Positions 7,169 to 26,861 of a stretch of DNA of 32,120 bases are shown here, piece by piece; the stretch's first letter is position 1, and every line of letters starts with the position of its first letter. Position numbers and translations under genes: made by a program. This stretch comes from an uncultured archaeon (GTDB lineage: Archaea > Asgardarchaeota > Thorarchaeia > Thorarchaeales > Thorarchaeaceae): assembly GCA_964590575.1 (NCBI GenBank), contig CAZPWM010000032.1, forward strand, positions 1-32,120, given 5' to 3'. The notes under the pieces are model-generated. The model saw only the letters and a program-made list of their open reading frames with translations. It did not search any database and had not been told where the DNA came from.

Positions 7169-9916
7169 ATGACTACTGAAAGACAGCCCAAATCAAGTAC
7201 TATCGGTACTAAAAACAGTATCAAATCCAATGAAGCCCTCGTCGTTGGTGGCGGAGTTGCTGGCATGCAGGCAGCACTTGATATTGCTAATCAGGGATTC
7301 AAGGTTACCCTCCTTGAGCAGACACCCTCGATTGGTGGCCGCATGGCAATGATCGATAAAACATTTCCCACACTGGACTGTAGCGCGTGCATACTTACGC
7401 CAAAGCTCAGTGAGGTATCAAGGCACCCGAACATCGACCTGGTCACTTATGCAGAAATCAAATCTGTTCATGGGGCGACCGGTGACTTTAGGGTCCGGGT
7501 CCACAAACATTCTCGCTATGTGGATGAGGACAAGTGTTCTGGCTGCGGTGACTGTATTCCAGTCTGCCCAATAGAGGTGCCAAATGAGTTCGACCAAGGA
7601 CTCGGCTTTCGAAAAGCAATCTACACACCTTTCCCACAAGCAACTCCAAATGTTGTAACTGTTGACAAGAAGGGTGAACCTGCTTGTAGAGCAACATGTC
7701 CTGCGGAGGTCAACGCACAAGGTTTTGTTACTATGATGAGACATGGGAAAATGGATGAGGCTCTTGAAATTGTTCGTAGATCCATCCCATTCCCCGGAGT
7801 TTTGGGCCGCGTCTGCATCAGCTTCTGTGAGGCTGAGTGTGAGCGGGGAATGCATGATGAGAGCATCAGCATCCGAAATCTCCATAGGTTCCTAGCAGAT
7901 TATGAACGAGCACATGGTGCAGCTCCAGTAGAGTCCAAGATTGATAAAAAAGAACGAGTGGCTGTCGTCGGTGGAGGTCCTGGAGGGATTAGTTGTGCGT
8001 ACCATCTTGCACGGATGGGCTATCCTGTTACAATTTTCGAGGCTCGGGAAAAAGCTGGAGGCATGCTCAGATATGCAATTCCTGAATATCGTCTACCACG
8101 CGAAATTCTAGATGAAGAAATCCAGCGCGTTGTTGACATGGGTGTCAAGATTAAGACAAAGACATTAGTGAAGTCTATCCATGATTTGAAGGAGAAGGGC
8201 TTCAAGGCAGTATTCGTTGCTACAGGTGCTTGGCAGAGTAATAAACTTGGAATTGCTGGTGAGGAGTCAGAGGGTGTTGTGCATGCTATCGAATTCCTTG
8301 AGAATGTGAACAGCGGAAAAAGAGTAGATGTTGGAAATAGAGTAGCAGTCATCGGAGGCGGTGATGCTGCTATCGATTCTGCTCGAACTGCAATTAGGCT
8401 CGGAGCCAAAGAAGTGACTCTCATCTACAGACGTTCTCACATCGAACTCCCTGCTATTCCAAGCGAAGTTGACGACGCCAAGGAAGAAGGCATCAAGTTC
8501 ATGCTTCTTACATCTCCAACAGAGATACTCTCCTCCAAGGGGAGAATCACTGGTTTGAGATGCATGAAAATGCGATTGGGTGAGCCCGACCACTCTGGTC
8601 GAAGACGGCCCGTTCCAATTCCAAACTCTGAGTTCACAATGGCAATTGATGAGATGATTGTCGCTATCGGTCAATCAACAGATCCGCGTGGAGTCCAGAC
8701 TGACCTCAAGTGCTCTGAATGGGCTACTGTAACAGCTGACCCAATCACACTAGAAACCAGTGAGCCTGGTGTCTTCGCTGGTGGTGATGTTGTCCTTGGA
8801 CCATTAACTGTTGTCAAAGCTGTTGGTCATGGAAAAGAGGCTGCATATTCTATAGATCGTTACATTCGTGGTATCGACCTTCGAGAGGGTCGTATCAAGG
8901 AACGTCATCGTGTCCAGTCTTATGAAGTCGATAAGAAGGGTATACCTTTCGAGAATCGAGCCTCCATGCCTAAACAGGGCATCAACAGCCGGAAACGCGG
9001 GTTCACTGAGGTTGAGTTGGGCTTTAATGAAGCAATAGCTGCTGCTGAAGCTGAACGTTGCTTGGGCTGCGCAGTGTGTTGTGAATGTGAGCGTTGTGTT
9101 GAAGCATGCACACGTGAAGCAATAAACCACCATATGAACGATGAGGTAATCGACCTTCACGTGGGTGCAATAATTCTGGCGACAGGTTATCGCCTTTTCA
9201 ATGTTGAAGAGTACCCACAGTTTGGTTATGGTAGACTACCCAATGTAATTCATGCCCTGGAGTACGAACGACTCATCAATGCAGCAGGACCAACTCAGGG
9301 TCATCTTGTCCGACTCACCGATGGAAAGGTGCCACAGAGTATTGGCTTTATTCAGTGTGTTGGTGCTCGTGACGTGCAGAAGGGAGTTCCTTACTGTAGT
9401 CGTGTTTGTTGCATGTATGGCATTAAAAACGCAGTTATGGCTAAAGAACACAGTCCTGACACCGAGGTCACTATCTATTATGCTGATATTCGCGCTTTTG
9501 GCAAGGGATTTGAAGAGTTCTATGAGATGGCTCGAACTCGGTTTGGAGTTAAGTTCATTCGAGGTCGTGTTGCAGAGGTCAATGAAGACAAGGAAACTGA
9601 CTCACTGATGGTACGTTTCGAAGACACTGAGACTGGAGAACTGCAAGAGGTCCATCATGACCTGATTGTGATTAGCCCAGGTGTCCAACCCCCTGAGGGT
9701 CTCGAGGACATCGCAGTGGAACTCAACATGGACCTCTCTGAAGAAGGATACGTCACAGTGGAAGACTTGGTTATCAGACCAGTTGACACTTCCATTGATG
9801 GTGTGTTTGTCTGTGGTTGTGCAGATGGTCCAAAGGACATTCCTGATTCTGTGTCAGCGGGAAGTGCTGCAGCAATGAGAGCTACAATCATTCTATCGAA
9901 AGTTGATGAAAATTAA
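7169..9916 (+). CDS. hdrA: HdrA-family flavoprotein with inserted GltD/NfnB-like NAD(P)H oxidoreductase module (HdrL-type)
   Basis: ATG 7169 after GGAGG preferred over TTG 7142. VVGGGVAG, KTFPTLDCSAC, ferredoxin CSGCGDC; insert with CRATCP, CEAECERG, GGGPGG, GGGDAAID, YRRS, FAGGD; then CVGAR..CSRVCC and GPKDIPDSV. Confidence 0.9.
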   Translation: MTTERQPKSSTIGTKNSIKSNEALVVGGGVAGMQAALDIANQGFKVTLLEQTPSIGGRMAMIDKTFPTLDCSACILTPKLSEVSRHPNIDLVTYAEIKSVHGATGDFRVRVHKHSRYVDEDKCSGCGDCIPVCPIEVPNEFDQGLGFRKAIYTPFPQATPNVVTVDKKGEPACRATCPAEVNAQGFVTMMRHGKMDEALEIVRRSIPFPGVLGRVCISFCEAECERGMHDESISIRNLHRFLADYERAHGAAPVESKIDKKERVAVVGGGPGGISCAYHLARMGYPVTIFEAREKAGGMLRYAIPEYRLPREILDEEIQRVVDMGVKIKTKTLVKSIHDLKEKGFKAVFVATGAWQSNKLGIAGEESEGVVHAIEFLENVNSGKRVDVGNRVAVIGGGDAAIDSARTAIRLGAKEVTLIYRRSHIELPAIPSEVDDAKEEGIKFMLLTSPTEILSSKGRITGLRCMKMRLGEPDHSGRRRPVPIPNSEFTMAIDEMIVAIGQSTDPRGVQTDLKCSEWATVTADPITLETSEPGVFAGGDVVLGPLTVVKAVGHGKEAAYSIDRYIRGIDLREGRIKERHRVQSYEVDKKGIPFENRASMPKQGINSRKRGFTEVELGFNEAIAAAEAERCLGCAVCCECERCVEACTREAINHHMNDEVIDLHVGAIILATGYRLFNVEEYPQFGYGRLPNVIHALEYERLINAAGPTQGHLVRLTDGKVPQSIGFIQCVGARDVQKGVPYCSRVCCMYGIKNAVMAKEHSPDTEVTIYYADIRAFGKGFEEFYEMARTRFGVKFIRGRVAEVNEDKETDSLMVRFEDTETGELQEVHHDLIVISPGVQPPEGLEDIAVELNMDLSEEGYVTVEDLVIRPVDTSIDGVFVCGCADGPKDIPDSVSAGSAAAMRATIILSKVDEN

Positions 9917-9933: not shown

Positions 9934-10455
9934 ATGACTGAACAAGCAAAAAGTGACCAGCCGGTCAATCACACACCGAGCTCTAGCTTTGCAAAGGAGA
10001 TTGAACAAGAGCCTGGCGGCGAAGGTATCATGCAGTGCATCCAATGTGGAATGTGTACTGCCTCATGTATGGTCGCTAGCGTAACCGAGAGATATCGGCC
10101 ACGAAAGCTCATTCAGAAGATTCTCCTTGGAAAGCGAGATGAAGTGCTGAATAGTGAGATGCCTTGGCTTTGCATGACGTGCAGACTCTGCGAAGAACGA
10201 TGTCAGGAAGATGTCCTCCTATCAGAGATATTCACAGCCGTACGAGAGATAGCTGCTCGTGAGGGTCATATCCCATCTGTTTTCCAGAATACTATCACCA
10301 AGGTCCTTGAAGATGGATGGCTTCTAAACGATGCCTACACAGACTTCGAGGAAGATGACCGTTCTGACCTTGGGCTTGATACTGACTTAGGTTGGAATAA
10401 CGAGTTTGTTAAGAAGCTCAAGAAGAAGTACTTCAATGGAGGCGCCAAAAAGTGA
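9934..10455 (+). CDS. hdrC: Heterodisulfide reductase subunit C
   Basis: CIQCGMCTASC and WLCMTCRLCEERC two-cluster motifs; directly before hdrB. Confidence 0.92.
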   Translation: MTEQAKSDQPVNHTPSSSFAKEIEQEPGGEGIMQCIQCGMCTASCMVASVTERYRPRKLIQKILLGKRDEVLNSEMPWLCMTCRLCEERCQEDVLLSEIFTAVREIAAREGHIPSVFQNTITKVLEDGWLLNDAYTDFEEDDRSDLGLDTDLGWNNEFVKKLKKKYFNGGAKK

Positions 10456-11318
10456 AAGAATATGTTCTTTATACTGGTTGTACAGCTCCAGTCCGACTTC
10501 CAGCCTATGAGAGAGCAGTTGAAGTTGTACTTGAGAAGCTTGGTATCCGCTTAACGACTATGAAAGATGCCAACTGTTGTGGCGCTCAATATGTCGAGTC
10601 AGTCAATCATGTTGCGTTTGCTGCAATGAGTGGAAGAATTCTAGCAATTGCGGAAAGTATGGACTTGGATATACTCGCAATATGCGGTGCTTGTTCAGGG
10701 TCTCTCAAACATGTGAAACATGATCTAGATCACAATGATGAGCTTCGTGCAGAGGTCAATGAAATATTGGCGGAGGAAGGTCTCAAATACACGGGCACAG
10801 TGCAGGTCAAGCATCTTCTCCAGATATTCAGAGAAGATATTGGTTATGACGCTATCAAGACTGCAGTCGTGAATCCCTACAAGGATATACGTCTTGCAGC
10901 ACATTATGGATGCCACGTGACACGACCTGAAGAGATAGTTCAGGTTGATGATGCTGAGAATCCGACAATTATTGATCGGATTATCGAAGCTGTGGGTGGT
11001 ACAGCTGTTGACTACACTGGTAAGACTCGTTGCTGCGGTGGACCATTACTTGCAATGGATGAAGAAGTGGGGAATGCCATAGGTAGGGACAAGATTGAGA
11101 ACATTCGAAATGAGAACGCAGATGGTATTGTCACTGCTTGTGTGTTCTGCGACATCCAGTTGACTCAGGTGCAGTTCGGACCAGAGGCTGGGGACAAACC
11201 AAAGATTCCTGTCATAACTCTCCCCCAGTTCCTAGGTCCTGCACTTGGAATCGATTTTGATTCTCTTGGTATTCATCTAAACAAGATTAGCCCAATGCCA
11301 ATTCTTGAAGCACATTAG
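10452..11318 (+). CDS. hdrB: Heterodisulfide reductase subunit B
   Basis: Two CCG domains: YTGC/NCCG/ICGAC and HYGCH/RCCGG/TACVFC; GTGA overlap with hdrC. Confidence 0.93.
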   Translation: MKEYVLYTGCTAPVRLPAYERAVEVVLEKLGIRLTTMKDANCCGAQYVESVNHVAFAAMSGRILAIAESMDLDILAICGACSGSLKHVKHDLDHNDELRAEVNEILAEEGLKYTGTVQVKHLLQIFREDIGYDAIKTAVVNPYKDIRLAAHYGCHVTRPEEIVQVDDAENPTIIDRIIEAVGGTAVDYTGKTRCCGGPLLAMDEEVGNAIGRDKIENIRNENADGIVTACVFCDIQLTQVQFGPEAGDKPKIPVITLPQFLGPALGIDFDSLGIHLNKISPMPILEAH

Positions 11319-11329
11319 GAGAAAAAAGA

Positions 11330-12628
11330 ATGAACAAATCAACAGCAAGTGCACTTGTTGTAGGTGGCGGAGTTGCAGGAATGCAAGCCGCGCTTGATAT
11401 AGCAAACCAAGGATTCAAGGTCTACCTAGTTGAGAGAGGTCCATCTATTGGTGGCCGTATGGCCATGCTCGACAAGACGTTCCCCACGCTAGATTGTAGT
11501 GCGTGCATATTGACACCAAAGCTGAGTGAGGTTTCCAGACATCCAAACATTCAGTTAATGACATACTCTGAGATTGGGAGTGTATCAGGAACAACTGGAG
11601 ATTTCAAAGTTAAAGTACGTCGAAAAGCGCGCTATGTCCGAGAGGACCTCTGCTCTGGATGTGGGGATTGTGAAGCAAACTGTCCAGTTGAAGTACCTAA
11701 TGAGTTCGATCAAGGAATAGGATTCCGAAAGGCTATCTATACTCCATTTCCTCAAGCCACTCCACATGTTTATACTGTTGACAAGGAGAATTGCACTGAT
11801 TGTGGAAGATGTGTTAAGGTCTGTGAGAGGAAAGCTATCAATATGGAAATGAAGGACAAAATTGTTAATCTTAAAGTGGGGGCAATAATAATCGCGACTG
11901 GCTTTGAGCTCTTTGATGTCACGCAATACCCCCGATTAGGATATGGACAGTATCCCAATGTTATACATGCAATGGAATTTGAAAGGTTGATTAACGCTGC
12001 TGGGCCAACTCATGGTCATCTCATTAGGCTCAGTGATGGAAAGAAACCGAAGTCAATTGCTTTCATTCAATGTGTAGGAGCTCGTGATGTACAGAAAGGA
12101 GTGCCCTTCTGTAGTAGAGTTTGCTGCATGTATTCAATTAAAAACGCTGTAATGGCTCTTGAGCACGATCCCGAAGCCGAAGTGTGGGTTTACTACGCTG
12201 ATATCCGTGCGTTTGGCAAAGGTTTCGAAGAATTTTATGAAATGGCTAAGAGTAGATTCGGTGTTCGTTTCGTCAGAGGTCGTGTTGCTGAGGTTATGGA
12301 GGGTAGAAGCTCCCATGATCTTATTGTCAAAGTCGAAGACACAAGCACATCTAAAGTTCGACTTATCGAGCACGATCTTGTTGTAATCAGTCCTGGAGTC
12401 GTTCCTTCGGAAGGAATGGACACCATGGCTAAAAAAATGGGATTAGAACAGAGCTGTGATGGTTACGTGGAGATCAGTCACTCGTTCTTTGGGCCAACAA
12501 TCACTAAAACTCCCGGAGTATTCGTATGTGGATGTGCAGACGGTCCAAAGGACATCCCCGATTCAGTGTCAGCGGGAAGTGCTGCCGCCATGAAAGCCAC
12601 CATCATTCTGGCTACCGGAGGAACATAA
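11330..12628 (+). CDS. hdrA: HdrA core paralogue (FAD domain + inserted ferredoxin; lacks N-terminal domain and C-terminal ferredoxin)
   Basis: Collinear with 7169-9916 minus the GltD insert: VVGGGVAG, TLDCSAC, CSGCGDC, CTDCGRC, CSRVCCMYSIK, GPKDIPDSV. Confidence 0.9.
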   Translation: MNKSTASALVVGGGVAGMQAALDIANQGFKVYLVERGPSIGGRMAMLDKTFPTLDCSACILTPKLSEVSRHPNIQLMTYSEIGSVSGTTGDFKVKVRRKARYVREDLCSGCGDCEANCPVEVPNEFDQGIGFRKAIYTPFPQATPHVYTVDKENCTDCGRCVKVCERKAINMEMKDKIVNLKVGAIIIATGFELFDVTQYPRLGYGQYPNVIHAMEFERLINAAGPTHGHLIRLSDGKKPKSIAFIQCVGARDVQKGVPFCSRVCCMYSIKNAVMALEHDPEAEVWVYYADIRAFGKGFEEFYEMAKSRFGVRFVRGRVAEVMEGRSSHDLIVKVEDTSTSKVRLIEHDLVVISPGVVPSEGMDTMAKKMGLEQSCDGYVEISHSFFGPTITKTPGVFVCGCADGPKDIPDSVSAGSAAAMKATIILATGGT

Positions 12629-12632
12629 GAAA

Positions 12633-14387
12633 ATGTCAGGATCGGAAGAAGAACCTAGAATTGGCGTGTTTATCTGCCACTGTGGGCATAACATAGCCGG
12701 TACTGTTGATGTCGAAGATGTAGCAAAGATGGCTTCTAAACTGCCACATGTTGTATTTTCAACAGATTCGATGTTCATGTGCTCGGATGCCGGGCAGATG
12801 CTCATCAAGGATAGCATAAAGGAGCATAAGCTCAACCGTGTGGTTGTGGCAAGCTGCTCTCCTCGAATGCACGAGCCCACATTCAGGCGAGTTGTTGAAG
12901 AGGCTGGTATGAACAGGTATCTGTTTGACCAAGTCAATCTTCGTGAGCATGTGTCATGGTGTCATATGAGAGAACCAGAACTTGCGACAGAGAAAGCCAA
13001 AGACCTTGTGAGAATGTCTGTCGCACGGGCTGCGAAGTTAGAAAATCTTCCAATCAAGACAGTAAGTGTCCTACCCAAAACAATGGTTGTGGGTGGAGGA
13101 ATTGCTGGTCTAAGAGCCTCCTTAGACATTGCTGAGAGAGGATTTGATGTTTTGCTAATCGAGAAGGCTGAAAAGCTTGGTGGCAATGTTGCTAAATGGA
13201 CACATCTATTCCCCTCAGACGAATCGGGTGCTGATATCATCCAACCTCTTATTCGTGATGTGAAAAAACACAATCGAATCAAGATACTAACAAGCAGTAA
13301 GGTGTCCGAGTTCGATGGCTATATTGGGAACTTCGGAGTTACAGTGAAGAACCTGAAGACTGAGAAGGAACAGAGGTTCGAGGTGGGTGCAGTGATTGTA
13401 ACCACTGGATTTGAACCCTTCAAACCTGCAGGTTACTATGCCTATGGTGAGTCTCCTGACATTATCACCTTGGCTGAACTCCAAGAACTTACTCCACGTG
13501 AACAACTTGTTAAACCTAGTGATGGAAAACCAGTGAAGAATGTTGTCTTCATTGGATGTGTAGGGTCTCGCGAACCAGGAGTCAAAGGTCACGAGCACTG
13601 CTCACGTCACTGTTGCTCAGCCACAGCGAAAGCCGCATCAGACTTGAGAGACCGCGTTGATGAGGTCATCGTATTATACCAAGACATTCGAACCTATGGG
13701 AAGGGTCATGAAGAGTTCCAAAGAATGGCCCGACAGAAACATGTCATTTACAGTAAGTTTCCTCTGGAAGCGCATCCTGAGATTTCTGTAAAGAAAGGCA
13801 AGATCAAGATGAAGTGGTATGACGTTCTAGCTGCTGAAGATTTGGAGTTTGAACCAGACCTTGTTGTTCTTGCCACCGCCATGATTCCCCCTGAGGATGT
13901 TGAAGAAACTTCACACATGTTCAGCCTAACTCGCAGTGGTGATGGCTTTTTCAATCCTGAGCACATCAAACTAGCTCCACTAACAACCCACACAGCTGGT
14001 GTGATGATTGCAGGAGCTGCGCAGGCAGCTAAGAACGCTTCTGAGTCAGTCATTGATGCAAGCGGCGCGGCAGCAAAGGCTGTTAGCCTCATGGCACAGG
14101 GTGAGGTTGAGATTGAATCGACGGTTTCGCATGTCATTCCTGAACTCTGTTCCAGCTGCCACACTTGTCTTACCGCTTGTCCCTATGGTGCCATCGCAAT
14201 GGATGAAACCAAGGACCCACCGGTTGCTTTTGTGACAGAGGCGAAGTGCCATGGTTGTGGAACATGTGCAGCCGCCTGCCCAAGCAGTGCAATTGTGATG
14301 TATCACTCAACAGATGACCAGATTCTAACAATGGTGGAAGCCTTTCTATGTCCTGCACCTGAGGTTGGAGGAGGCGGTTCAGCATGA
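12633..14387 (+). CDS. hdrA: HdrA-like subunit (N-terminal Cys domain, FAD domain, C-terminal ferredoxin; lacks TLDC motif and inserted ferredoxin)
   Basis: RIGVFICHCGHNIAG, MCS, ASCSPRMHE, NLREHVSW, VVGGGIAG, CSRHCC, CSSCHTCLTACP, CHGCGTCAAACP. Confidence 0.88.
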   Translation: MSGSEEEPRIGVFICHCGHNIAGTVDVEDVAKMASKLPHVVFSTDSMFMCSDAGQMLIKDSIKEHKLNRVVVASCSPRMHEPTFRRVVEEAGMNRYLFDQVNLREHVSWCHMREPELATEKAKDLVRMSVARAAKLENLPIKTVSVLPKTMVVGGGIAGLRASLDIAERGFDVLLIEKAEKLGGNVAKWTHLFPSDESGADIIQPLIRDVKKHNRIKILTSSKVSEFDGYIGNFGVTVKNLKTEKEQRFEVGAVIVTTGFEPFKPAGYYAYGESPDIITLAELQELTPREQLVKPSDGKPVKNVVFIGCVGSREPGVKGHEHCSRHCCSATAKAASDLRDRVDEVIVLYQDIRTYGKGHEEFQRMARQKHVIYSKFPLEAHPEISVKKGKIKMKWYDVLAAEDLEFEPDLVVLATAMIPPEDVEETSHMFSLTRSGDGFFNPEHIKLAPLTTHTAGVMIAGAAQAAKNASESVIDASGAAAKAVSLMAQGEVEIESTVSHVIPELCSSCHTCLTACPYGAIAMDETKDPPVAFVTEAKCHGCGTCAAACPSSAIVMYHSTDDQILTMVEAFLCPAPEVGGGGSA

Positions 14388-14830
14388 CAACAACAATGAC
14401 TGAAACTGCTGCTTCAAAGAAAGAATGGGAACCCAAGATTATGGCGTACTGCTGTAACTGGTGTTCATACGCGGGTGCTGACCTAGCAGGTACTAGCAGG
14501 ATTCAATACCCTACCAATGCAAGAATTCTACGTGTGAACTGTACTGGGCGTATCAGTCCTGAGTTCATTTTAGCTGCTCTTAATATGGGCGCAGACGGAG
14601 TACTTGTTTCCGGGTGCCACCCCGGAGATTGTCATTATACCAGTGGAAATCTCAAAGCCCGAGCACGATGGGCATTGATGGAAACTGCCATTGAACAGGC
14701 TGGAGTTGATCCTCGCAGGGTCCGACTTCAGTGGGCAAGCGCATCAGAAGCGCAGATATTCGCTGACGGTGTAAGAAAACTTACTGAACAAGTTAGAGAA
14801 CTAGGTCCAATAAGGAGGAACTGGAAATGA
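14384..14830 (+). CDS. mvhD: [2Fe-2S] MvhD/VhuD adaptor subunit
   Basis: CCNWCSYAGAD, RVNCTGR, GADGVLVSGCHPGDCHY, WASASE; all ligands are Cys codons. Confidence 0.95.
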   Translation: MTTTMTETAASKKEWEPKIMAYCCNWCSYAGADLAGTSRIQYPTNARILRVNCTGRISPEFILAALNMGADGVLVSGCHPGDCHYTSGNLKARARWALMETAIEQAGVDPRRVRLQWASASEAQIFADGVRKLTEQVRELGPIRRNWK

Positions 14831-15063
14831 GCAGAATGTTTGCACAATACTTTACTCAAAAACGTGGTGACGTTCGCAAGCAACGAAAAGCTATTGAGGA
14901 CTTCCTCAAGGGCGGTCCTGCTGCAGTATCGAAGATAGCTGAAGCAACTAAGTTTGAAACAGATCTTGTAGTCTGGAATCTCATGGGTATGCTCCGTTGG
15001 GGGCAGGTTGAGGTTGCGGGTGAAGAGGAACACGAGCTGGTATACGTACTGAAGGAGGTCTAA
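14827..15063 (+). CDS. Small winged-HTH-like protein inside the hdr-vhu operon
   Basis: 78 aa; ATGA overlap with mvhD; IEDFLKGGP-AVSKIAEAT-helix-GQVEV pattern resembles a wHTH; its 3' end carries the GGAGG SD for vhuG. Confidence 0.7.
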   Translation: MSRMFAQYFTQKRGDVRKQRKAIEDFLKGGPAAVSKIAEATKFETDLVVWNLMGMLRWGQVEVAGEEEHELVYVLKEV

Positions 15064-15065
15064 GC

Positions 15066-15989
15066 TTGGCGGATCCAGTTTCTATTGCAATGGGTCAAGG
15101 TAGCTCTTGTTGGGGATGTTTCCAGAGTTTAGTTGATATCCACCTCAACTTAGCTACAGTTCTCCCAGCACTAGAGATCAAGTACTGGCAAGCTGTTGCT
15201 GACTTTAAGCTCCATCACCTCGAGAGTTATGAGGACAAATCGATAGTTGTTGGCCTCTTCGAAGGAATGGCCCGGACTGAAGAAGACATTCACCTTCTCA
15301 AATTGATGCGAGAGAAATGCCAGGTATTGATTTCATTCGGTTCCTGTTCTTGTTTCGGCGGGATTCCGGGTCTAGCAAACTTTTCTGACATAGAGGAGTG
15401 CCTTGATGTCAAGTTTCGTGAGAATGCCACCGTGACCGGTGGAAAGGTTCCAAGTGAGAACCTGCCCGGTATTGCTCCTGTGGTTAAACCTAACACTTCC
15501 TTTGTTGATTTTGACATTTTCCTTCCAGGATGCCCACCTACATCGAAACTAATTCTCACTGCGGTAACTAAGCTACTGGCTGGGGAACCAATTGAACTCC
15601 CACCACACACAGTATGCCATTATTGCAATCGCGAGAAGAAAGAAACACCCATTGAGAAAATTCTCCGCCCCTATCAAGGGATTGCAGACCCTGACAGATG
15701 CCTGCTGGAGCAAGGTTACATCTGTGTAGGTTCCGCTACTTGGGGGTTGTGCGAAGGTCAGTGTGTGAACAAGGGTGCAACTTGCAGAGGTTGCTTTGGA
15801 CCACCTCCGCCAATAATGCAGGACCATGGTGCTAACTCGATGGCTATGCTTGGTACATACGCTCCTCTTCCACCTGAGGAGATAAAGGAACAGGTGAAGG
15901 ACCCATTGGGTACTTTCTATCGCTTCGATTATGCCACTAGTAACTTAGGAGAAATGCGAATCAAGCGTGAGGAGGTCAAGAACAGATGA
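15066..15989 (+). CDS. vhuG: Group 3c [NiFe(Se)] hydrogenase small subunit
   Basis: SCWGC, FEG, GSCSCFGGIPGL, PGCPP, TVCHYC, CLLEQGYICVG, CRGCFGP; TTG start. Confidence 0.92.
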   Translation: MADPVSIAMGQGSSCWGCFQSLVDIHLNLATVLPALEIKYWQAVADFKLHHLESYEDKSIVVGLFEGMARTEEDIHLLKLMREKCQVLISFGSCSCFGGIPGLANFSDIEECLDVKFRENATVTGGKVPSENLPGIAPVVKPNTSFVDFDIFLPGCPPTSKLILTAVTKLLAGEPIELPPHTVCHYCNREKKETPIEKILRPYQGIADPDRCLLEQGYICVGSATWGLCEGQCVNKGATCRGCFGPPPPIMQDHGANSMAMLGTYAPLPPEEIKEQVKDPLGTFYRFDYATSNLGEMRIKREEVKNR

Positions 15990-17302
15990 CCGAAGACAAA
16001 ACAATCCGAATTGATCCAGTGACTCGACTCGAAGGACATGGATCGCTCACGATAAAGCTTGGAAAGGATAACAAGATCAAAGACGTGCAGTTCAATGTGA
16101 ACTCTACTCGATTCTTTGAGAAGTTTCTTGAGGGTCGCCCAATGGAGGAGGCCCCCAGAATCGCTCCAAGAATCTGTGGTATCTGTCCAATCCCCCACCA
16201 TCTTGCATCTGTCAAGGCTGTCGAGGCGGCATGGGATGTTACTCCAACTCCAACCGCAGTCAAGCTACGTAGACTGATGATTGAGGCGAAGCAGTTCTCC
16301 TCTCATGTCATTCACTTCTATGCGCTTGCTGCTCCAGACTTCGTCTATGGACCTTTCGCAAACCCTGCAGATAGGAACGTTGCCGCGGTGTTGAGAGACT
16401 TACCGGAAGTCGCAGTACAAGCAATCAAGATGATGGAATTTGGCCAAGAGTTGATCAAGACTGTTGGTGCCAAAGCAATCCATCCAACAACTGCAATTCC
16501 AGGCGGCATGCTCACATCTCTGAAGGAAGAGGACCGTGACTTTTTCCTCGGACGCCTTGAAGAGGTCCAGCAACTCACACTGAATACTGTGGATCTAGCA
16601 AAGAAAGTCGTAACCGATTACCTAGATGTAATTACAAAGGTCGCAGTCACTCCTACATACTACATTGGTCTCTCCAACAAGGGGACACTCGATATCTATG
16701 ATGGAACTGTTCGTGTGATGGACCCAGATGGCAAGATTGTCGCTGACTTCGAACCGAAGGACTACACCAAGTACTACGGTGAACATGTAGCAAAGCACAG
16801 CTATGCAACTCATATTTACTACAAACCAGCTGGATACCCCGAAGGTATCTGGAGAGCCAATACCCTGGCACGATGCAACGTCAACGAGAGGATGGCAACG
16901 CCGCTTGCTGACGCCGCGCTCAAGGAGATGCGTGAGCTCATTGGTCGACCATCGCATCACACTTTTGCATTCCATTATGCTAGGATTGTCGAAATTGTCC
17001 AAGCGTTCGAGTCGATTGCTGGACTCCTGAATGATCCCGATATCTGTGACACTGATGTGAAAGTATCCGACGTTGAACCCAAGGCCGGTAACGGTGTTGG
17101 AATCGTAGAGGCGCCACGAGGAATTCTGATGCATAATTATGTGTCAGACGACAAGGGAATGCTTACCAAGGCAAATCTAATCGTTGCAACAAACAACAAC
17201 ATTGCTGGCATTGAGAAGAGCCTCATGACAGCAGCAAAACAGATCTTCGAAGACAATGCCCTTGAGAGCATTGTTCTTCCCGAACCAATGGTGAAGAGGT
17301 AA
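15986..17302 (+). CDS. vhuA: Group 3c hydrogenase large subunit, split type (C-terminal Ni-binding motif absent)
   Basis: PVTRLEGH, RFFEKF, L1 motif PRICGICP, EAPRG, NLIVATNNN; ends at TAA with no DPCxxCxxH. Confidence 0.93.
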   Translation: MTEDKTIRIDPVTRLEGHGSLTIKLGKDNKIKDVQFNVNSTRFFEKFLEGRPMEEAPRIAPRICGICPIPHHLASVKAVEAAWDVTPTPTAVKLRRLMIEAKQFSSHVIHFYALAAPDFVYGPFANPADRNVAAVLRDLPEVAVQAIKMMEFGQELIKTVGAKAIHPTTAIPGGMLTSLKEEDRDFFLGRLEEVQQLTLNTVDLAKKVVTDYLDVITKVAVTPTYYIGLSNKGTLDIYDGTVRVMDPDGKIVADFEPKDYTKYYGEHVAKHSYATHIYYKPAGYPEGIWRANTLARCNVNERMATPLADAALKEMRELIGRPSHHTFAFHYARIVEIVQAFESIAGLLNDPDICDTDVKVSDVEPKAGNGVGIVEAPRGILMHNYVSDDKGMLTKANLIVATNNNIAGIEKSLMTAAKQIFEDNALESIVLPEPMVKR

Positions 17303-17348
17303 AGGCCATACCTCATGATTATAAAGAAAAAAAGAAACGTGAAAAACT

Positions 17349-17501
17349 ATGTCGGAAGAAATTCCTGAAGGAATACTGAACCTCATCGAGATGGTGGTTC
17401 GGTGTTACGACTGCTGACTATCCTGCGGCGCTCATTTCGTCATTGTAGACGATGAGGGTCGCGAGATTGTCAGGAAGGAGCTTGTGACTGGCGGCGGATG
17501 A
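17349..17501 (+). CDS. vhuU: Selenocysteine-containing VhuU peptide completing the [NiFeSe] active site (absent from ORF track)
   Basis: MSEEIPEGILNLIEMVVRCYDC-U(TGA 17415-17417)-LSCGAHFVIVDDEGREIVRKELVTGGG-stop. Matches VhuU NLIE..R.YD.U.SC.AH; lies 46 nt after vhuA; SECIS-like hairpin follows. Confidence 0.93.
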
Positions 17502-17544
17502 AGACGCGGTCGTAAACTAACGGACCGGGTCTGACAACCCTGCT
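17490..17544 (+). promoter_or_regulatory. Eukaryote-like SECIS element of vhuU
   Basis: ATGA core 17498-17501 opposite TGAC 17532-17535; stem GAC/GTC, G.G mismatch, CGGTC/GACCG, GT/AC; apical AAA at 17514-17516, 12 nt from the core; lower helix GCGG/CTGC. Confidence 0.85.
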
Positions 17545-17545
17545 C

Positions 17546-17583
17546 GGGTGTGCTTGTCACACTCCTTCCCTCCTTTCTCTTTT
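17546..17583 (+). repeat. Hairpin + pyrimidine-tract element, copy R1
   Basis: GGGTGTG-CTTGT-CACACTCCTTCCCTCCTTTCTCTTTT directly after the SECIS. Confidence 0.75.
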
Positions 17584-17642
17584 CACTAATTAAGAATAGT
17601 AGAATATATGAGCAGTATAGTTACTATCGTAGTGAGAGGAGA

Positions 17643-17795
17643 ATGACAAGCACTATTGCTGAACAAGTGAGGCACAGAAGAGACCTTGACCAGGTAAGAA
17701 CAGCTATCGAAGCTAGACGTTATACAGGTCTTGAAACTCTGATCATGGGGCTAAAACTCTCTGCTTTGGCTTTGCGGATTGCAGGTGATAAATAG
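17643..17795 (+). CDS. Small 50-aa protein abutting the nucleotidyltransferase gene (possible TA-type partner)
   Basis: ATG at 17643 with GAGAGGAG just upstream; TAG stop directly followed by the next ATG. Confidence 0.55.
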   Translation: MTSTIAEQVRHRRDLDQVRTAIEARRYTGLETLIMGLKLSALALRIAGDK

Positions 17796-18350
17796 ATGGA
17801 AGAGTTTCCTGAAATTCTCCAGCTAGTTTGTACATATCTGAATGACAATAGAATCGACTATGTCATCGTTGGTGGAGTAGCAGTCATGTACCATGGTGTC
17901 CCTCGAACCACAGTAGACATTGATTTCATACTTCAGATGGATGATGAACAAATCTCTTTATTCACAGATTTTTTGAACTCAAAGGGGTTTGTTGCATCAG
18001 CAACCGACATTCGAACCGCATTCCAAGAGAAATCACATAGCACCGCATTCTTCAAAGACACGCTGCTTCGTCTTGACATTCAAGGGATTAATTCCGATTT
18101 TGATACGATGACATTAGATCGAGCAATCTCGGTTGATTTATTTGGTACATCTATTAGGATTGGTTCTGCAGAAGACACTTTAGTCAATAAGATACTGTTT
18201 CAAGGTGAACAAGACCTGAGAGATGTTCTTGGTATCCTCAAAAGAAATCCTGAGCGCCTTGATTTTGATTACATCCGGTCAACATGCGAAATGCTTGGAA
18301 TCGGAACCCTTCTGGATGAATTTCTGAGTAGTTCAGAGAAGCTAAAGTAG
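17796..18350 (+). CDS. Pol-beta superfamily nucleotidyltransferase (DUF6036-like)
   Basis: YVIVGGVAVMYHGVPRTTVDIDF (GG..DxD), SAEDTLVNK, QDLRDV. Confidence 0.8.
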   Translation: MEEFPEILQLVCTYLNDNRIDYVIVGGVAVMYHGVPRTTVDIDFILQMDDEQISLFTDFLNSKGFVASATDIRTAFQEKSHSTAFFKDTLLRLDIQGINSDFDTMTLDRAISVDLFGTSIRIGSAEDTLVNKILFQGEQDLRDVLGILKRNPERLDFDYIRSTCEMLGIGTLLDEFLSSSEKLK

Positions 18351-20287: not shown

Positions 20288-20453
20288 ATGCAAAACACCT
20301 TAAGCAAATTCCCGCGTTTCAAATATACAGGCATAGCGACTACGCAAACCTTCTCAGACTGGTTTTATTGAGGATTGACTTTTTTCCTGTACTTCCACAT
20401 GAGGACTACTCTAGTTTTGAATGACCTGAATTCACATGAGCGAGTGATAAACA
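20288..20453 (+). promoter_or_regulatory. Conserved promoter + long leader of ssb copy 1
   Basis: ~86% identical (manual count, 23 differences in 166 nt) to 20964-21127; hairpins GCATAG/CTACGC and AAACC/GGTTT; GAGTGA SD. Confidence 0.7.
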
Positions 20454-20846
20454 ATGAATGAACACAAGATAGAGGCCAACAAGGCCACAATTGTCACGCT
20501 TGAGCCTGGAATGAGAAGTGTAAACATCACTTTCAAGGTCATGAGCACAGGCGACGAAAGATCGGTCGACTCCAGTAGGGATGAGGGGACACATCGGGTC
20601 CTAGATGCTGTGGTTGGCGATTCGACAGCAACAGTTCTAATGCCTGTCTGGAATGAAACAATCGACGCAATAAAAGAAGGCGGGACTTACACCCTTTCGA
20701 ATGGATACACAGGTCTTTTCAAGGGTAGTCTAAGACTTCACTTGGGAAAGTTCGGTTCCATTGTTTCGGCTGAAGAATCAATTCCTGAAGTGAACACTGA
20801 AATTGACATGTCCACTAGAGATTTCAATAGCAGTCCAACAAGTTAA
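20454..20846 (+). CDS. ssb: Single-OB-fold ssDNA-binding protein (crenarchaeal SSB/hSSB1-like), copy 1
   Basis: LEPGMRSVNITFKV, VVGDSTATVLMPVWNE, NGYTGLFKGSLRLHLGKFG. Confidence 0.85.
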   Translation: MNEHKIEANKATIVTLEPGMRSVNITFKVMSTGDERSVDSSRDEGTHRVLDAVVGDSTATVLMPVWNETIDAIKEGGTYTLSNGYTGLFKGSLRLHLGKFGSIVSAEESIPEVNTEIDMSTRDFNSSPTS

Positions 20847-20963: not shown

Positions 20964-21127
20964 ATGCATAACGCCTTATGCGAACTCCCGCGTTTCAAAT
21001 GTACAGGCATAGCAACTATGCAAACCTTCTAGATTGGTTTTATTGAGGACTAACGACCTTCTTGTACTTCCACTTGAGGACTACCCTAGTTTTAATGACC
21101 TGAATTCGCAAGAGCGAGTGATATACA
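20964..21127 (+). promoter_or_regulatory. Conserved promoter + long leader of ssb copy 2
   Basis: Paralogue of 20288-20453; perfect hairpin GCATAG-CAA-CTATGC, AAACC/GGTTT, internal direct repeat TTGAGGACTA x2, TCGC-AAGA-GCGA next to the SD. Confidence 0.7.
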
Positions 21128-21520
21128 ATGTATGATAACAATATAGAAGCCATTGAGGCCACTATCGCCGAGCTTAAGCCCGGAATGAAAAGTGTAAACA
21201 TCACCTTCAAGGTCATGAATACAAGTGAAGAACGAGAGGTTGAATCCCGCAAGACGGGTGAGACCTACCGAGTAGTAGATGCCCAGGTTGGAGATTCTAC
21301 AGGGACAATCCTGATGCCTATCTGGAATGAGACCATCGATTCAATAGAGGAAGGAACGACTTACATGCTTTCTAATGGATACACTGGTCTCTTCAAGGGC
21401 AATCTCAGACTTCAATTAGGGAAGTTCGGTTCAATTGCTGCAGCTGAAGAACCAATCGATGAAGTGAACTCAGAAGTAGACATGTCTGCTGAAGATCACG
21501 GTAGTCGTCCAAGATATTAG
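21128..21520 (+). CDS. ssb: Single-OB-fold ssDNA-binding protein, copy 2
   Basis: LKPGMKSVNITFKV, VGDSTGTILMPIWNE; 85/130 aa identical to copy 1 (manual count). Confidence 0.87.
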   Translation: MYDNNIEAIEATIAELKPGMKSVNITFKVMNTSEEREVESRKTGETYRVVDAQVGDSTGTILMPIWNETIDSIEEGTTYMLSNGYTGLFKGNLRLQLGKFGSIAAAEEPIDEVNSEVDMSAEDHGSRPRY

Positions 21521-23090: not shown

Positions 23091-23133
23091 CTAGCTCATT
23101 TACGATTAAATTTTGAAATCCAGAGGGTTACTT

Positions 23134-23553
23134 ATGTCCAAAGGGAATTTTGAACCTCGAATTATTGCTTTCCTCTGTAATTGGTGCAGTTATGCGGGTG
23201 CTGACTTAACGGGCACAAGTCGTATCCAATACTCACCTAATGTAAAAGCGCTCCGAGTAAATTGCTCAAGCCGCGTTGACCCAACCTTCGTGATCAAAGC
23301 CCTCATGTCGGGGGCTGATGGTGTACTTGTTGCTGGTTGTCATCCAGGAGATTGCCACTACAAATCCGGGAATCTTTACACAAGAAGAAGAGTCATGATG
23401 CTGAAGACACTTCTCGAAACGATTGGTATACCCCCAGCTAGATTACGACTGGAATGGGTGTCTGCGTCAGAGGCAATCAAGTTTGCTACCGTGGTCAATG
23501 ATTTCGTGGATGAGATCAAGGAACTAGGTCCTAGTACAATAGGAGTGAACTGA
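23134..23553 (+). CDS. mvhD: Second MvhD paralogue, heading the formate dehydrogenase operon
   Basis: FLCNWCSYAGAD, RVNCSSRV, GCHPGDCHY, WVSASE; ATG 23134 after GAGGGT. Confidence 0.93.
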   Translation: MSKGNFEPRIIAFLCNWCSYAGADLTGTSRIQYSPNVKALRVNCSSRVDPTFVIKALMSGADGVLVAGCHPGDCHYKSGNLYTRRRVMMLKTLLETIGIPPARLRLEWVSASEAIKFATVVNDFVDEIKELGPSTIGVN

Positions 23554-25587
23554 ATGATCGAGTACAAAGAGACAATCTGTCCCTACTGTAGTTGTGGTTG
23601 TGGAATCTATCTAGTGATAGAGGATGGGAAGATCATTGGTGAAGAACCTCAGAATAATCACCCAATAAACGAGGGCGGGAACTGTCCAAAAGGGAGGAAT
23701 GCATACCAGTTTCTCTATGCTGAGGACAGACTGAAGACTCCAATGATACGAAAGAACGGGAAGCTTGTGAAAGCCACATGGGATGAAGCACTCGACCTCA
23801 TCACTTCAAAACTGAAGGAGGCCGGACCCAATGAGTTTGGTCTTATCGCTTCGGGAAAGAACACGAATGAGGACGCATATGTTCTGCAGAAGTTCACACG
23901 AGTTGTAATGGGCACGAACAATGTGGAGTACTGTGGTCGATTATGTCACTCGTCTACTGCTTCGGGACTTGGCCCCACAGTTGGATCTGGTGTAATGCCT
24001 ATCTCTCAAATGGATATTGAGAATGCAGATTGTATCTTCCTAGATGGAATCAATATCAAAGAGACTTTTCCTCTTATGGCAAAGAGGGTCATGAGGGCAA
24101 AGAAAAAGGGTGCAAAGATAATCGTCATGGACCCCCGAAAGTCTATTACCGCACGTGAACTTGCTGACATCCATTTGCAATTGGAACCCGGAACAGACGT
24201 GCTTGTTCTCAACTCACTCATGAAGATTATCCTCGAAGAGGAGCTTGAGGACAAAGAATTCATCGAAGCTAGAACCACAGGGATTGAAGCACTTCGAGAA
24301 CACCTAGGCTCCTTGGACCTTAAGGAGATGTCAGATCTCTCGGGAGTTTCCATGCGCAAGCTGGACGAGGCGGCTCGTATGCTTGCCAAGGCCAAGACAT
24401 GCACGATACTGTTCAATCAAGGACTCAATCAACACATTTCTGGAACTGATGGTATCAAGGCTCTAGCAACTCTGGCTCTGATAACCGGTCAATATGGAAG
24501 ACCCGGTACTGGCATCAGTCCAACTCGTGGTCAGATCAATGGTGAAGGTACAGGGGATATGGGTTGCCTCAATGTGTTCTATCCTGGTTTCCAAAAGGTA
24601 GGAACACCAGCTGAGCCACACAAGAAATTCGCCGAACTTTGGGGGGTTGAGAATCTTCCTGACCAACCGGGGCTACCTTATACGAAGATGATTCAGCAGA
24701 CTAAGTATATGTGGATAGTAGGGACAAATCCAATGATGGCAGCTCCCGATATTGATAAGGTGCGCGAGTCACTTGAAGCAAAAGAACTTCTAATTGTTCA
24801 GGACATCTATCCGACTGAAACTGCTGAGCTAGCTGACATTGTGCTCCCTGTAGCCACATGGGTTGAGCGAGAGGGAGTTCATGCATATGTCGACCGACGA
24901 GTACAGAAAATCAACAAACTCATTGATCCACCTGGTGAGGCAAAGCCTGACTGGTGGATTGTCTGTCAGGTTGCAGAGCGGATGGGTTTCAAGAAGTATT
25001 TTGACTTTTCATCTTCAAGTGAGATATTTGAGGAGATACGAAGAGTCGTACCACCATACAAGGGACTGACCTATGAGCGAATTGAGAATACATTGGGTGG
25101 TATCCAGTGGCCTTGTCCAACGGAGGACCATCCCGGCACACCCACCTTCTTCACTCAGAAGTTCAATACACCTGACGGATTAGGTCATCTTCAAGTTGTG
25201 GACTTCAAACCACCTGCAGAGTTGACTGATGAGCAGTATCCATTCATTCTTACAACTGGCAGGAGTATCTTCCATTATCACACTGGCACCATGAGTCGTA
25301 GAACTCCGACGTTGCATTCGGAAGTTCCAAAGAACTACTGCCAGGTTAATCCTAAGGATGCTGCCGCTAAGAACATCAGAGAAGGGACAAAGATCTCTTT
25401 GAGTACCAGACGGGGTACTATCGAAGCAAAAGCTCAGGTGACTGATGACGTTCCTGAAGGGCTTATCTTTCTTCCTTTCCATTTCCATGAGTCATGTGCC
25501 AATAAGATAACGAATCCCGTGTTGGATCCAGAATGTGGGATGCCTGAATACAAGGTCTGTGCAGTCAATATTGAGGTGGTCAAATGA
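23554..25587 (+). CDS. fdhA: Formate dehydrogenase alpha subunit (Mo/W-bis-PGD), Cys type
   Basis: CPYCSCGC...CPKG, RLKTP, active-site CGRLCHS, RGQINGEG, ADIVLP, LTTGR, PEYKVCAV. Confidence 0.9.
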   Translation: MIEYKETICPYCSCGCGIYLVIEDGKIIGEEPQNNHPINEGGNCPKGRNAYQFLYAEDRLKTPMIRKNGKLVKATWDEALDLITSKLKEAGPNEFGLIASGKNTNEDAYVLQKFTRVVMGTNNVEYCGRLCHSSTASGLGPTVGSGVMPISQMDIENADCIFLDGINIKETFPLMAKRVMRAKKKGAKIIVMDPRKSITARELADIHLQLEPGTDVLVLNSLMKIILEEELEDKEFIEARTTGIEALREHLGSLDLKEMSDLSGVSMRKLDEAARMLAKAKTCTILFNQGLNQHISGTDGIKALATLALITGQYGRPGTGISPTRGQINGEGTGDMGCLNVFYPGFQKVGTPAEPHKKFAELWGVENLPDQPGLPYTKMIQQTKYMWIVGTNPMMAAPDIDKVRESLEAKELLIVQDIYPTETAELADIVLPVATWVEREGVHAYVDRRVQKINKLIDPPGEAKPDWWIVCQVAERMGFKKYFDFSSSSEIFEEIRRVVPPYKGLTYERIENTLGGIQWPCPTEDHPGTPTFFTQKFNTPDGLGHLQVVDFKPPAELTDEQYPFILTTGRSIFHYHTGTMSRRTPTLHSEVPKNYCQVNPKDAAAKNIREGTKISLSTRRGTIEAKAQVTDDVPEGLIFLPFHFHESCANKITNPVLDPECGMPEYKVCAVNIEVVK

Positions 25588-26861
25588 GTATGAATATGTT
25601 TATTGCTCGCTCAACCAATGAGAGTCTACTGGAGAGAGGAGAAACCGGTGGAGCAGTCACCGCTGTTCTCAAGTGTGCTCTTGAGAACGGGGACATTGAT
25701 GGTGTCGTTACAGTCAGGTCAAAGAAAGGCGACAGGTTTTCTGGCATACCGGTTTTAATAACAGACCCAGAGGATCTCGTTGATACAGCAGGATCCCTTC
25801 ATTGCTCATTGCCGAACATCCCCCGCTTTGTTAAGGAGTACCTAGGTGGTGCTGCCCACATGAAGTTGGCTGTAGTGGGTAAACCCTGTGATATACGAGC
25901 CATCATTGAGCTCCAGAAGAGAAAGCAGATTGACATTGACAATGTAATCCTTATCGGTCTCAATTGCACAGGAACCATCGCGCCAGCAGTTGCTAGGAAG
26001 ATGTATACTGAGGACTTCAAGGTTGATCCAAGCGATGTTATTCGCGAAGACATCGATAATGGAGAGCTGACGATTACTCTGAAGGATGGAACTACAAAAT
26101 CAAAGGACCTTGCTAAACTGGAAAAGAAGGGTTTGGGTCGTCGAGAGAATTGCAGACGCTGCGAGTATAACATCCCTACCTTTGCAGACTTGGCATTTGG
26201 CAAATGGGGGACTGAGGATCTCGAAGATGTTGGGACTTTCGTTGAAGTGCGGACTGAGAAAGGAAAGACTCTGCTTGATAGAGCCATCGATAAGAAGTGC
26301 ATCGAAGTCACTACTCCATCAAAGATAGGCATCGAAACAAGGGAGCAAAAGGATAAGACAGCAATCGAAAGTGCTAAGGAATGGAGAGAACACGATTTCA
26401 GTCCTCTACTCAAAATGGACCTTCCAGAACGTTACAAGTACTGGACAGAAGAGTTCAGAAAATGCATCAAGTGCTTTGGTTGCCGAGACGCATGTCCAAT
26501 TTGCTACTGTGAAACATGTCTGCTTGAAGCCAATAGAGAGTTTCTTGTTGGTGGTGAAGTCCCTCCCAATGGTATATTTCCTATAACTAGGCTTGCACAT
26601 GTTGCTGATTCGTGCGTTGGTTGTGGACAGTGTCAGGATGCTTGTCCAATGGAGCTACCTCTATCGAAATTATTCACTCTCATGAACTCACAACTCAATG
26701 AGGTATTCGACTATGAACCAGGAGTTGATGTTGAGGAACGACCTCCAACAACGGTAGCCAGAGATGAGGAACTACAAATAGATGATACATTTCTGAACAT
26801 CACAAGCGCACTCAAAAGAAATCATGAGAAGAAAGAGGAAGTCATGACGGGTGGTAAATAA
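25584..26861 (+). CDS. fdhB: Formate dehydrogenase beta subunit (FrhB/FdhB F420-binding fold + C-terminal ferredoxin)
   Basis: GGAVT, AGSLHC, GKPCD, IGLNCTGT, RRENCRRC, CIKCFGCRDACPICYC, CVGCGQCQDACP. Confidence 0.9.
   Translation: MSMNMFIARSTNESLLERGETGGAVTAVLKCALENGDIDGVVTVRSKKGDRFSGIPVLITDPEDLVDTAGSLHCSLPNIPRFVKEYLGGAAHMKLAVVGKPCDIRAIIELQKRKQIDIDNVILIGLNCTGTIAPAVARKMYTEDFKVDPSDVIREDIDNGELTITLKDGTTKSKDLAKLEKKGLGRRENCRRCEYNIPTFADLAFGKWGTEDLEDVGTFVEVRTEKGKTLLDRAIDKKCIEVTTPSKIGIETREQKDKTAIESAKEWREHDFSPLLKMDLPERYKYWTEEFRKCIKCFGCRDACPICYCETCLLEANREFLVGGEVPPNGIFPITRLAHVADSCVGCGQCQDACPMELPLSKLFTLMNSQLNEVFDYEPGVDVEERPPTTVARDEELQIDDTFLNITSALKRNHEKKEEVMTGGK

Follow-up and report, generated by a model that had tools for sequence, protein, structure and literature searches.

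The gene vhuU, which encodes selenocysteine (Sec), was described together with its selenocysteine insertion sequence (SECIS) in a 2016 study of Lokiarchaeota by Mariotti et al. (PMC4989117). The main text of that study reports a VhuU of about 50 amino acids with one Sec, and a "lokiSECIS" element made up of AUGA, a 9-base-pair (bp) stem, an 11-nucleotide (nt) A-rich loop ending in G, and GA/AA; the AUGA of Loki VhuU.1 doubles as the stop codon. Huang, Xiao and Zhang catalogued 1439 Asgard selenoprotein sequences in 2024 (PMC11227280). According to their main text, Sec is used by 77.4% of Thorarchaeia, with frhA/mvhA/vhuU in 68.3% of the Sec users; the frhA elements are of type I, and the loop starts with G[U/G]AAA in most Thorarchaeia frhA/vhuU genes. 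The description of Asgard Sec and VhuU is repeated in a 2026 review (PMC13188914) and a 2024 genome paper (PMC11291895). For Methanococcus maripaludis, the Hdr-Vhu-Fwd complex has a solved structure (PDB 9sfi), and the text of the structural study names its hydrogenase VhuADGU (PMC13518236). The locus analysed here lies in a window of 32,120 nt, the whole of the stretch under study (contig CAZPWM010000032.1, assembly GCA_964590575.1), from an uncultured archaeon of the Thorarchaeia, where a frame corresponding to vhuU follows the hydrogenase gene vhuA.

This vhuU is very probably a real Sec-coding gene belonging to a split Thorarchaeote Vhu [NiFeSe] hydrogenase, with its own SECIS element and a Sec machinery in the same genome, and would operate by the mechanism outlined below. 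The locus and the genome present a split gene, a UGA at the nickel-ligand position, coding constraint past this UGA, a covarying SECIS-like hairpin, and the genes of the Sec pathway. The parts of the split gene are as follows.

15986-17302, plus strand: vhuA, [NiFe(Se)] hydrogenase large subunit (translation; Pfam NiFeSe_Hases).
17303-17348, plus strand: A-rich spacer of 46 nt between vhuA and vhuU (sequence read directly).
17349-17501, plus strand: vhuU coding sequence (CDS), 50 codons and a stop, with TGA 17415 predicted to be read as Sec (translation; relatives; NCBIfam VhuU).
17412-17414, plus strand: TGC for Cys22, immediately 5' of the putative Sec codon, where Pro is usual (TGC in 36 of 36 distinct CDS).
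17415-17417, plus strand: UGA, putative Sec codon, residue 23, at the nickel-ligand position (alignment; TGA in 36 of 36 distinct CDS of relatives).
17436-17498, plus strand: C-terminal tail of 21 codons (FVIVDDEGREIVRKELVTGGG), with predicted cleavage after His29 (from [NiFe] maturation biology).

VhuA is 438 amino acids long by translation and ends in ...LPEPMVKR, followed by TAA. Residues 62-67 (nt 16169-16186) form RICGIC, the ligand motif of the N-terminal part. The full translation contains neither a DPCxxCxxH-type motif nor a C-terminal CxxCxxH motif, its only cysteines being C64, C67, C307 and C353; a preliminary description of this DNA, made from its letters, had reported both the presence of RICGIC and the loss of the C-terminal motif, and the translation confirms this. 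The vhuU frame, at +1 relative to vhuA, runs from ATG 17349 through 22 codons to TGA 17415-17417, and then through 27 codons to a stop TGA at 17499-17501. It translates as MSEEIPEGILNLIEMVVRCYDC, the TGA-encoded residue and LSCGAHFVIVDDEGREIVRKELVTGGG, followed by the stop, and its motif region reads MSEEIPEGILNLIEMVVRCYDC-U-LSCGAH-FVIV...GGG. His29 is encoded at 17433-17435, with 21 residues left behind it. The coordinates, the residues and the counts of 29 and 21 given for this 50-codon frame in the preliminary description all agree with direct reading and translation. The list of open reading frames (ORFs) under translation table 11 has just a 22-residue stub at this place (17349-17417). 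TGA is an ordinary stop codon in the window, where it ends 11 of 28 ORFs, suggesting that recoding is local and site-specific, with no global reassignment of the codon.

Evidence that the two frames correspond to a single large subunit came from comparison with solved structures. The top solved match of VhuA is the 418-residue VhuA chain 9sfi_g (424 bits, residues 7-421 on 4-417). The next-ranking matches are fused MvhA chains, and in one of them, 5odc_F, residues 4-411 are matched by VhuA residues 7-414, while VhuU residues 6-32 align to the C-terminal end, 425-451. The TGA is aligned to X (Sec) of the solved 27-residue VhuU chain 9sfi_M, in the context YDPXYSCAAH, and to the first Cys of DPCxxCxxH in 3zfs_A, 7t2r_D, 9sw2_F and 5odc_F, as expected from the earlier claim that it occupies the nickel-ligand position. 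The VhuU tail is similar in alignment to the tail of FrhA 3zfs_A. Among NCBIfam families, VhuA scores highest against VhuA NF041785 (482.8 bits, model positions 4-417 of 418), and VhuU, with Sec scored as Cys, against the 45-position VhuU model NF041786 (52.9 bits). These alignments indicate that the window encodes a split large subunit whose two parts together are colinear with fused MvhA; the TGA falls on the first C-terminal nickel ligand.

Additional evidence for translation through the TGA came from relatives. The closest relatives of VhuA are found in the Candidatus Thorarchaeota metagenome-assembled genomes AB_25 (96% identity) and SMTZ1-45 (94%). In a set of 41 genomes, comprising the genome of the window, 24 of its genus and 16 others of the phylum, a whole vhuU frame with a single in-frame TGA is present in 17, the genome of the window included; the TGA stands at the identical codon, and D-C-U-x-x-C-x-x-H is found in all 17. 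When loci were sought using VhuA, vhuU with the TGA was present in 30 of 33 Thorarchaeota-type loci, the remaining three (L061, L077 and L079) stopping inside or at vhuA. Given that the TGA recurs at the identical codon in 16 other genomes and in 30 of the 33 loci, the frame is not a product of chance. After removal of duplicates, 36 of 36 distinct vhuU CDS have TGA at the site and TGC before it, with TGA as the stop codon in 34 and TAA in two. Downstream of the TGA, 25 distinct CDS of equal length differ from the window 78, 33 and 180 times at codon positions 1, 2 and 3, respectively. This third-position bias argues for a translated region, and conservation past the TGA had been anticipated in the preliminary description. 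In a draw of 400 genomes from the phylum, 219 match vhuU at E<=1e-5 and 203 at E<=1e-8, and among the matches listed all but one have exactly one TGA.

The end of vhuU overlaps a putative SECIS element, which is followed by further hairpins.

17497-17536, plus strand: candidate SECIS element, eukaryote-like type I (Rfam SECIS_1, covariation, R1, a covariance model of this study, and fold).
17537-17585, plus strand: hairpins (ACCC-UGCUC-GGGU or alternatively GUGUG-CUUGU-CACAC) and a pyrimidine-rich tract (minimum-free-energy fold, alignment).

The AUGA core of the element (17498-17501) includes the vhuU stop codon and is followed by A. A 5' arm of 9 nt (17503-17511) and a 3' arm (17523-17531) enclose an apical loop of 11 nt, GUAAACUAACG (17512-17522), which is A-rich at its 5' end and has G as its last nucleotide; after the 3' arm come U and then GA (17533-17534). 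The loop starts with GUAAA, fitting the G[U/G]AAA of Thorarchaeia, and the element starts 80 nt past UGA 17415-17417. In a permissive Rfam scan of 17250-17700, SECIS_1 (RF00031) was the top match (17490-17544, 19.2 bits, E 0.46, model 1-64). Across 33 aligned, distinct Thorarchaeia sequences, the A, T, G and A of AUGA and the 3' A are invariant, as is the AA of the loop. The proposed structure has 95.3% of its cells paired, compared with 12.6-51.8% in controls that shift the 3' partners by 1-3 columns. The nine pairs of the upper stem are 94.2% paired and six of them have changed on both sides; none of 500 shuffles matches the observed covariation score. The region folds at -34 kcal/mol, with z -2.47. 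The covariance model R1, built from the 33 Thorarchaeia vhuU SECIS sequences, scores the element of the window at 56.8 bits and detects a SECIS in 18 of 18 further Thorarchaeia-family loci outside its training set. By eye, the AT-rich loci of other Asgard families have the arrangement AUGA-stem-AAA-stem-GA/AA, with the stop mostly inside AUGA. R1 is too specific to vhuU and to GC content for mapping of the selenoproteome. A hand-written pattern ([AGT]TGA, stem, AAA loop, GA) returned 212 candidates, among which vhuU ranked near the middle, and was dropped as not discriminating. Downstream of the SECIS, pairing in hairpin 2 reaches 97.7%, and one of its pairs has changed on both sides; a CTCCTTCC..TTTCTCTTTT motif (family D2) recurs behind other genes in relative L130. 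The hairpins and pyrimidine tract at 17537-17585 probably mark the transcript end.

Relatives of the genus also have orphan copies consisting of the last ~13 vhuU codons, the SECIS and the downstream hairpins. L131 (G365:C24) has three copies, at 1111-1150, 1677-1716 and 2501-2541, which lie 566 and 825 nt apart. In L130 (G022:C80), a 125-nt repeat with 85% identity occurs at 1321-1445 and 6167-6291, 4846 nt apart, and flanks a nucleotidyltransferase, SSB-like genes and an AMP-binding enzyme. Orphan copies are present in L132, L133 and L037 as well. No selenoprotein frame was seen upstream of the extra copies, and in the genome of the window no orphan copy was found, R1 giving a single match with 150 of 728 candidates scored. 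The orphan copies may have been left behind by rearrangements, or may be a source of new genes with a SECIS, and may merit specialist attention.

The preliminary description had proposed a genome search for tRNA-Sec, SelB/EFSec, SelD, PSTK and SepSecS. All are present in the genome of the window, a draft of 194 contigs that is 91% complete, with PSTK below its cut-off. The tRNA-Sec (60 bits, above cut-off) has the anticodon TCA and lies on contig C120 with SepSecS (485 bits); a PSTK-like gene (136 bits) adjoins both. The SelB/EFSec homologue scores 293 bits, above cut-off. The selD gene reads G-U-SCK around an in-frame TGA and uses TGA as its stop; when its 3' region was folded, no SECIS could be assigned with confidence. 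A gene for a HycI-family maturation protease is found at G000:C6:13697-14026 (65 bits). From homology, VhuU is predicted to be processed to a mature peptide of 29 amino acids, with loss of a 21-residue tail; indirect support comes from this protease gene and from the 27-residue solved chain as compared with the 45-position VhuU model. A separate observation concerns G000:C1:52475-53557 (minus strand), which is translation-GTPase-like, scores 70 bits to the selB model and has a 567-residue open frame with one TGA; it may represent two genes or another recoded gene.

Four read runs, in contig form, were compared with the locus, with RNA-library contigs from two studies. Record 7 of run X17 (RNA library) corresponds to 17104-17438 and spans the vhuA-vhuU junction, and record 14 of run X21 (RNA library) corresponds to 16755-17501, from the junction through to the stop. 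DNA contigs of further runs cover the vhuA-vhuU region too. Among the 40 differences listed of 195, none falls at 17415-17417. The spacer between the two genes is variable in relatives, the contigs of runs X17 and X5 having other letters there. The RNA-library contigs give a weak hint that vhuA-vhuU is transcribed.

Several observations weigh against reading vhuU as a Sec-coding gene with its own SECIS, or limit how far that reading extends. The support is all comparative and at the level of sequence. Family scores fall below cut-offs for VhuA (800, the equivalog cut-off of NF041785), VhuU (70 for NF041786), VhuG (221 bits against 450 for NF045875), VhuD (125.6 bits, below the curated NCBIfam cut-off) and the PSTK-like gene (290.5); NF041785 and NF041786 are presumably centred on methanococci. 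The SECIS_1 match is below the gathering score of 35, and no Rfam family was found at gathering thresholds over the whole window. Pair 17506/17528 of the proposed stem is G.G in the window and unpaired in 11 of the 33 sequences. At E<=1, R1 reaches just 6 of 23 loci of other Asgard families, and it gave no second SECIS in the genome of the window (150 of 728 candidates scored), which lends no support to a SECIS design common to the selenoprotein genes of this genome. The RNA-library contigs come from relatives at 90-95% and may reflect DNA carry-over. Finally, the deposited chain 9sfi_M extends one residue beyond the His after which VhuU is predicted to be cleaved.

An alternative in which the TGA simply terminates translation would make the frame the degenerate leftover of a large subunit that was formerly fused, with the hydrogenase inactive or completed by another protein. 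While table 11 gives only the 22-residue stub, TGA is frequent as a stop in the window and the support for read-through is comparative, the residues after the TGA are conserved and third-position-biased in 36 distinct CDS and phylum-wide, the downstream hairpin covaries, the genome has the full Sec machinery, and a homologous split enzyme has been solved with Sec at the equivalent place. Termination at this codon is hardly credible in view of these data. Near-cognate tRNAs might instead decode the UGA, often or always, as another residue (Cys or Trp), for instance under selenium shortage; the enzyme would then be a [NiFe] hydrogenase. A natural Cys paralogue in another Asgard genome (G230:C96; D-C-C, TAA stop, no SECIS) indicates that Cys works there. 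However, a dedicated SECIS and a complete Sec pathway are maintained here, and the TGA is kept in all 36 distinct CDS although Cys (TGT or TGC) is a single substitution away, making this reading very unlikely.

The draft state of the genome, at 194 contigs and 91% completeness, would also be compatible with a TGT or TGC that was misassembled or misread as TGA, but the identical TGA occurs in 36 distinct sequences from independent assemblies, and both DNA and RNA-library contigs span the site with no difference there among the 40 of 195 listed; the probability of such an error is negligible. The claim of the preliminary description that TGA 17415 encodes Sec thus withstands comparison with these alternatives, on the strength of its presence in every distinct CDS, the coding-type conservation past it, the covarying SECIS and the Sec machinery.

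With UGA 17415 read as Sec, the following mechanism can be proposed. VhuA would supply the N-terminal RxCGxC nickel ligands, and VhuU, of about 50 amino acids, would supply the C-terminal strand D-C-U-L-S-C-G-A-H, the first ligand of which would be the Sec encoded by UGA 17415-17417. Sec-tRNA(Sec) would be made by PSTK and SepSecS, using selenophosphate from SelD, and would be delivered to UGA 17415 by the SelB/EFSec homologue under the direction of the SECIS 80 nt downstream. Translation would terminate at the second UGA, since this codon sits in the SECIS, which would be melted by the time the ribosome reaches it; the main text of Mariotti et al. (PMC4989117) gives this minimal-distance argument. 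The 21-residue tail would presumably be cut after His29 by the HycI-type protease, following insertion of Ni-Fe. The 29-residue selenopeptide would then stay on VhuA, completing the Ni-Fe-Se site. Because the tail would be discarded, the fate of the second UGA would be irrelevant to the mature enzyme. Together with VhuG, VhuD and the products of the adjacent hdr genes, VhuA/VhuU would form a [NiFeSe] module of the group 3c Mvh/Vhu-Hdr type. The genes upstream of vhuA are as follows.

7142-9916, plus strand: GltD/HdrA-like fusion (Pfam; NCBIfam HdrA2 matches in the hdr block).
9934-10455, plus strand: hdrC (Pfam).
10452-11318, plus strand: hdrB (Pfam).
11330-12628, plus strand: hdrA-like gene (Pfam; NCBIfam HdrA2 matches in the hdr block).
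12633-14387, plus strand: hdrA-like gene (Pfam; NCBIfam HdrA2 matches in the hdr block).
14384-14830, plus strand: vhuD/mvhD (FlpD) (Pfam FlpD, 171 bits; NCBIfam VhuD, 125.6 bits).
14827-15063, plus strand: conserved 78-codon ORF in the interval between vhuD and vhuG (ORF list).
15066-15989, plus strand: vhuG, hydrogenase small subunit (Pfam Oxidored_q6; NCBIfam VhuG NF045875).

The locus has a large subunit with RxCGxC, an Oxidored_q6 small subunit, an MvhD/FlpD protein and adjacent hdrABC genes. Neither vhuD nor the hdrA of the operon has an in-frame TGA, and hdrA ends with TGA. An in-frame stop was found in 0 of 10 FlpD-domain matches genome-wide; by that check, FlpD-domain (VhuD-type) proteins of this genome are without Sec. 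The 78-residue product of ORF 14827-15063 matched no Pfam or NCBIfam family. The ORF is kept at the equal place in 26 of 33 loci of relatives, with 45-91% identity, and has a weak paralogue on contig C80 of the same genome. Its product may be a small subunit, or a regulator, of the hydrogenase module that has escaped recognition.

A feature of VhuU that sets it apart from fused subunits is the residue before the Sec. All 36 distinct CDS read D-C-U, and so do 37 of another 38 Asgard loci; the remaining one, the Cys paralogue G230:C96, has D-C-C. D-P-C is found in 11 of 11 fused Asgard large subunits examined and in a second large subunit of the same genome, on contig C15. D-P is likewise kept in the solved large subunits and VhuU that were aligned, with Methanococcus VhuU reading D-P-X. 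No mention of the D-C-U motif or of a Cys-Sec pair was found in PMC4989117 or PMC11227280 (main texts), or by a literature search. One conceivable, though doubtful, interpretation of these alignments is that Asgard VhuU swapped an otherwise invariant Pro for Cys, and that the vicinal Cys-Sec pair forms a reversible selenenylsulfide protecting or gating the Ni-Fe site. If true, Asgard [NiFeSe] hydrogenases would have an active-site variant of their own. The conserved motif may merit specialist attention. Cys19 (17403-17405; RCYDCU as compared with RAYDPC) is a second extra cysteine, present in most but not all Asgard VhuU.

Other hidden Sec genes were sought in the window by means of an ORF list reading TGA as U. 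The same-frame pair 1929-2963/2964-3605 was rejected as a Sec gene, being two separate, complete genes by Pfam (URO-D and a B12-binding protein), as was the pair 23113-23553/23554-25587 (FlpD and FdhA). An extension at 12456-14486 was also rejected, since it runs into the gene before it and the match of HdrA to its family model already begins at residue 9. The first of these regions is a methyltransferase system (1929-4800), with URO-D/MtaA-like methyltransferase genes at 1929-2963 (minus strand) and 3775-4800 (plus strand) flanking the gene for a B12-binding corrinoid protein at 2964-3605 (minus strand). In the second, an mvhD-like gene at 23113-23553 (plus strand), the second in the window, stops with TGA and is directly followed, in-frame, by fdhA at 23554-25587 (plus strand; TIGR01591, 749 bits, above cut-off), which has no in-frame TGA; fdhB follows at 25584-26861 (plus strand). 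Directly behind the vhuU terminator region lies a small ORF starting at ATG 17644, within ORF 17550-17795 (plus strand), next to a DUF6036/DUF2204 nucleotidyltransferase gene at 17796-18350 (plus strand). The same nucleotidyltransferase is found behind vhuU in G022, and the small ORF and the nucleotidyltransferase look like a toxin-antitoxin-like pair. Further downstream, a 37-nt repeat with 86% identity occurs at 20288-20324 and 20964-21000, upstream of tandem SSB-like OB-fold genes at 20454-20846 and 21128-21520. The repeat motif precedes the SSB-like pair in L130 too, and is probably a shared promoter or operator.

Without Sec-aware gene calling, the operon resembles a broken hydrogenase. 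Under the reading proposed here, this Thorarchaeote would possess a complete [NiFeSe] Vhu/Mvh-Hdr module, and its genome would count as Sec-using. The practical value of this reading is in annotation, and it involves no new biological principle: a vhuU gene with a eukaryote-like SECIS and an overlap of AUGA and stop codon is an arrangement already known for Asgard archaea. Asgard vhuU and its eukaryote-like SECIS are the published basis for the view that an Asgard-like Sec system was ancestral to that of eukaryotes.

The closest parallels are the Asgard vhuU genes and lokiSECIS elements described in PMC4989117 and PMC11227280 (main texts). In both those genes and the window, vhuU lies by vhuA, vhuG, vhuD and hdr; the AUGA/stop overlap, the 9-bp stem, the 11-nt loop and the GA are shared with the lokiSECIS of PMC4989117, and nothing essential differs. 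One difference from Lokiarchaeia is that VhuD and HdrA are reported in these texts as the most abundant selenoproteins there, whereas vhuD and the operon hdrA of this genome are without Sec. The element of the window also has the AUGA...AAA...GA design of eukaryotic SECIS elements (RF00031 SECIS_1), but its upper stem is shorter and it overlaps the CDS, with conserved Gly-Gly-Gly codons on the 5' side of a putative lower stem.

There are also parallels with Methanococcus (PDB 9sfi/9t1s; PMC13518236; NCBIfam NF041785 and NF041786). Both systems have a split large subunit with Sec at the ligand position of UxxCxxH, a C-terminal tail on VhuU, and an association with VhuD, VhuG and Hdr. The comparison with Methanococcus made in the preliminary description therefore stands as regards the homology of the split VhuA and VhuU, but the host is a Thorarchaeote and the SECIS is of the Asgard, eukaryote-like kind, in contrast to the GAA_A type of methanococci (PMC13188914). 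Thorarchaeote VhuA is also about 20 residues longer at its C-terminus, and VhuU has D-C-U where 9sfi_M has D-P-U. Fused MvhA (5odc_F, 9sw2_F, 7t2r_D) is colinear with VhuA plus VhuU, but is a single polypeptide with Cys in place of Sec, in the motif D-P-C, and has no SECIS.

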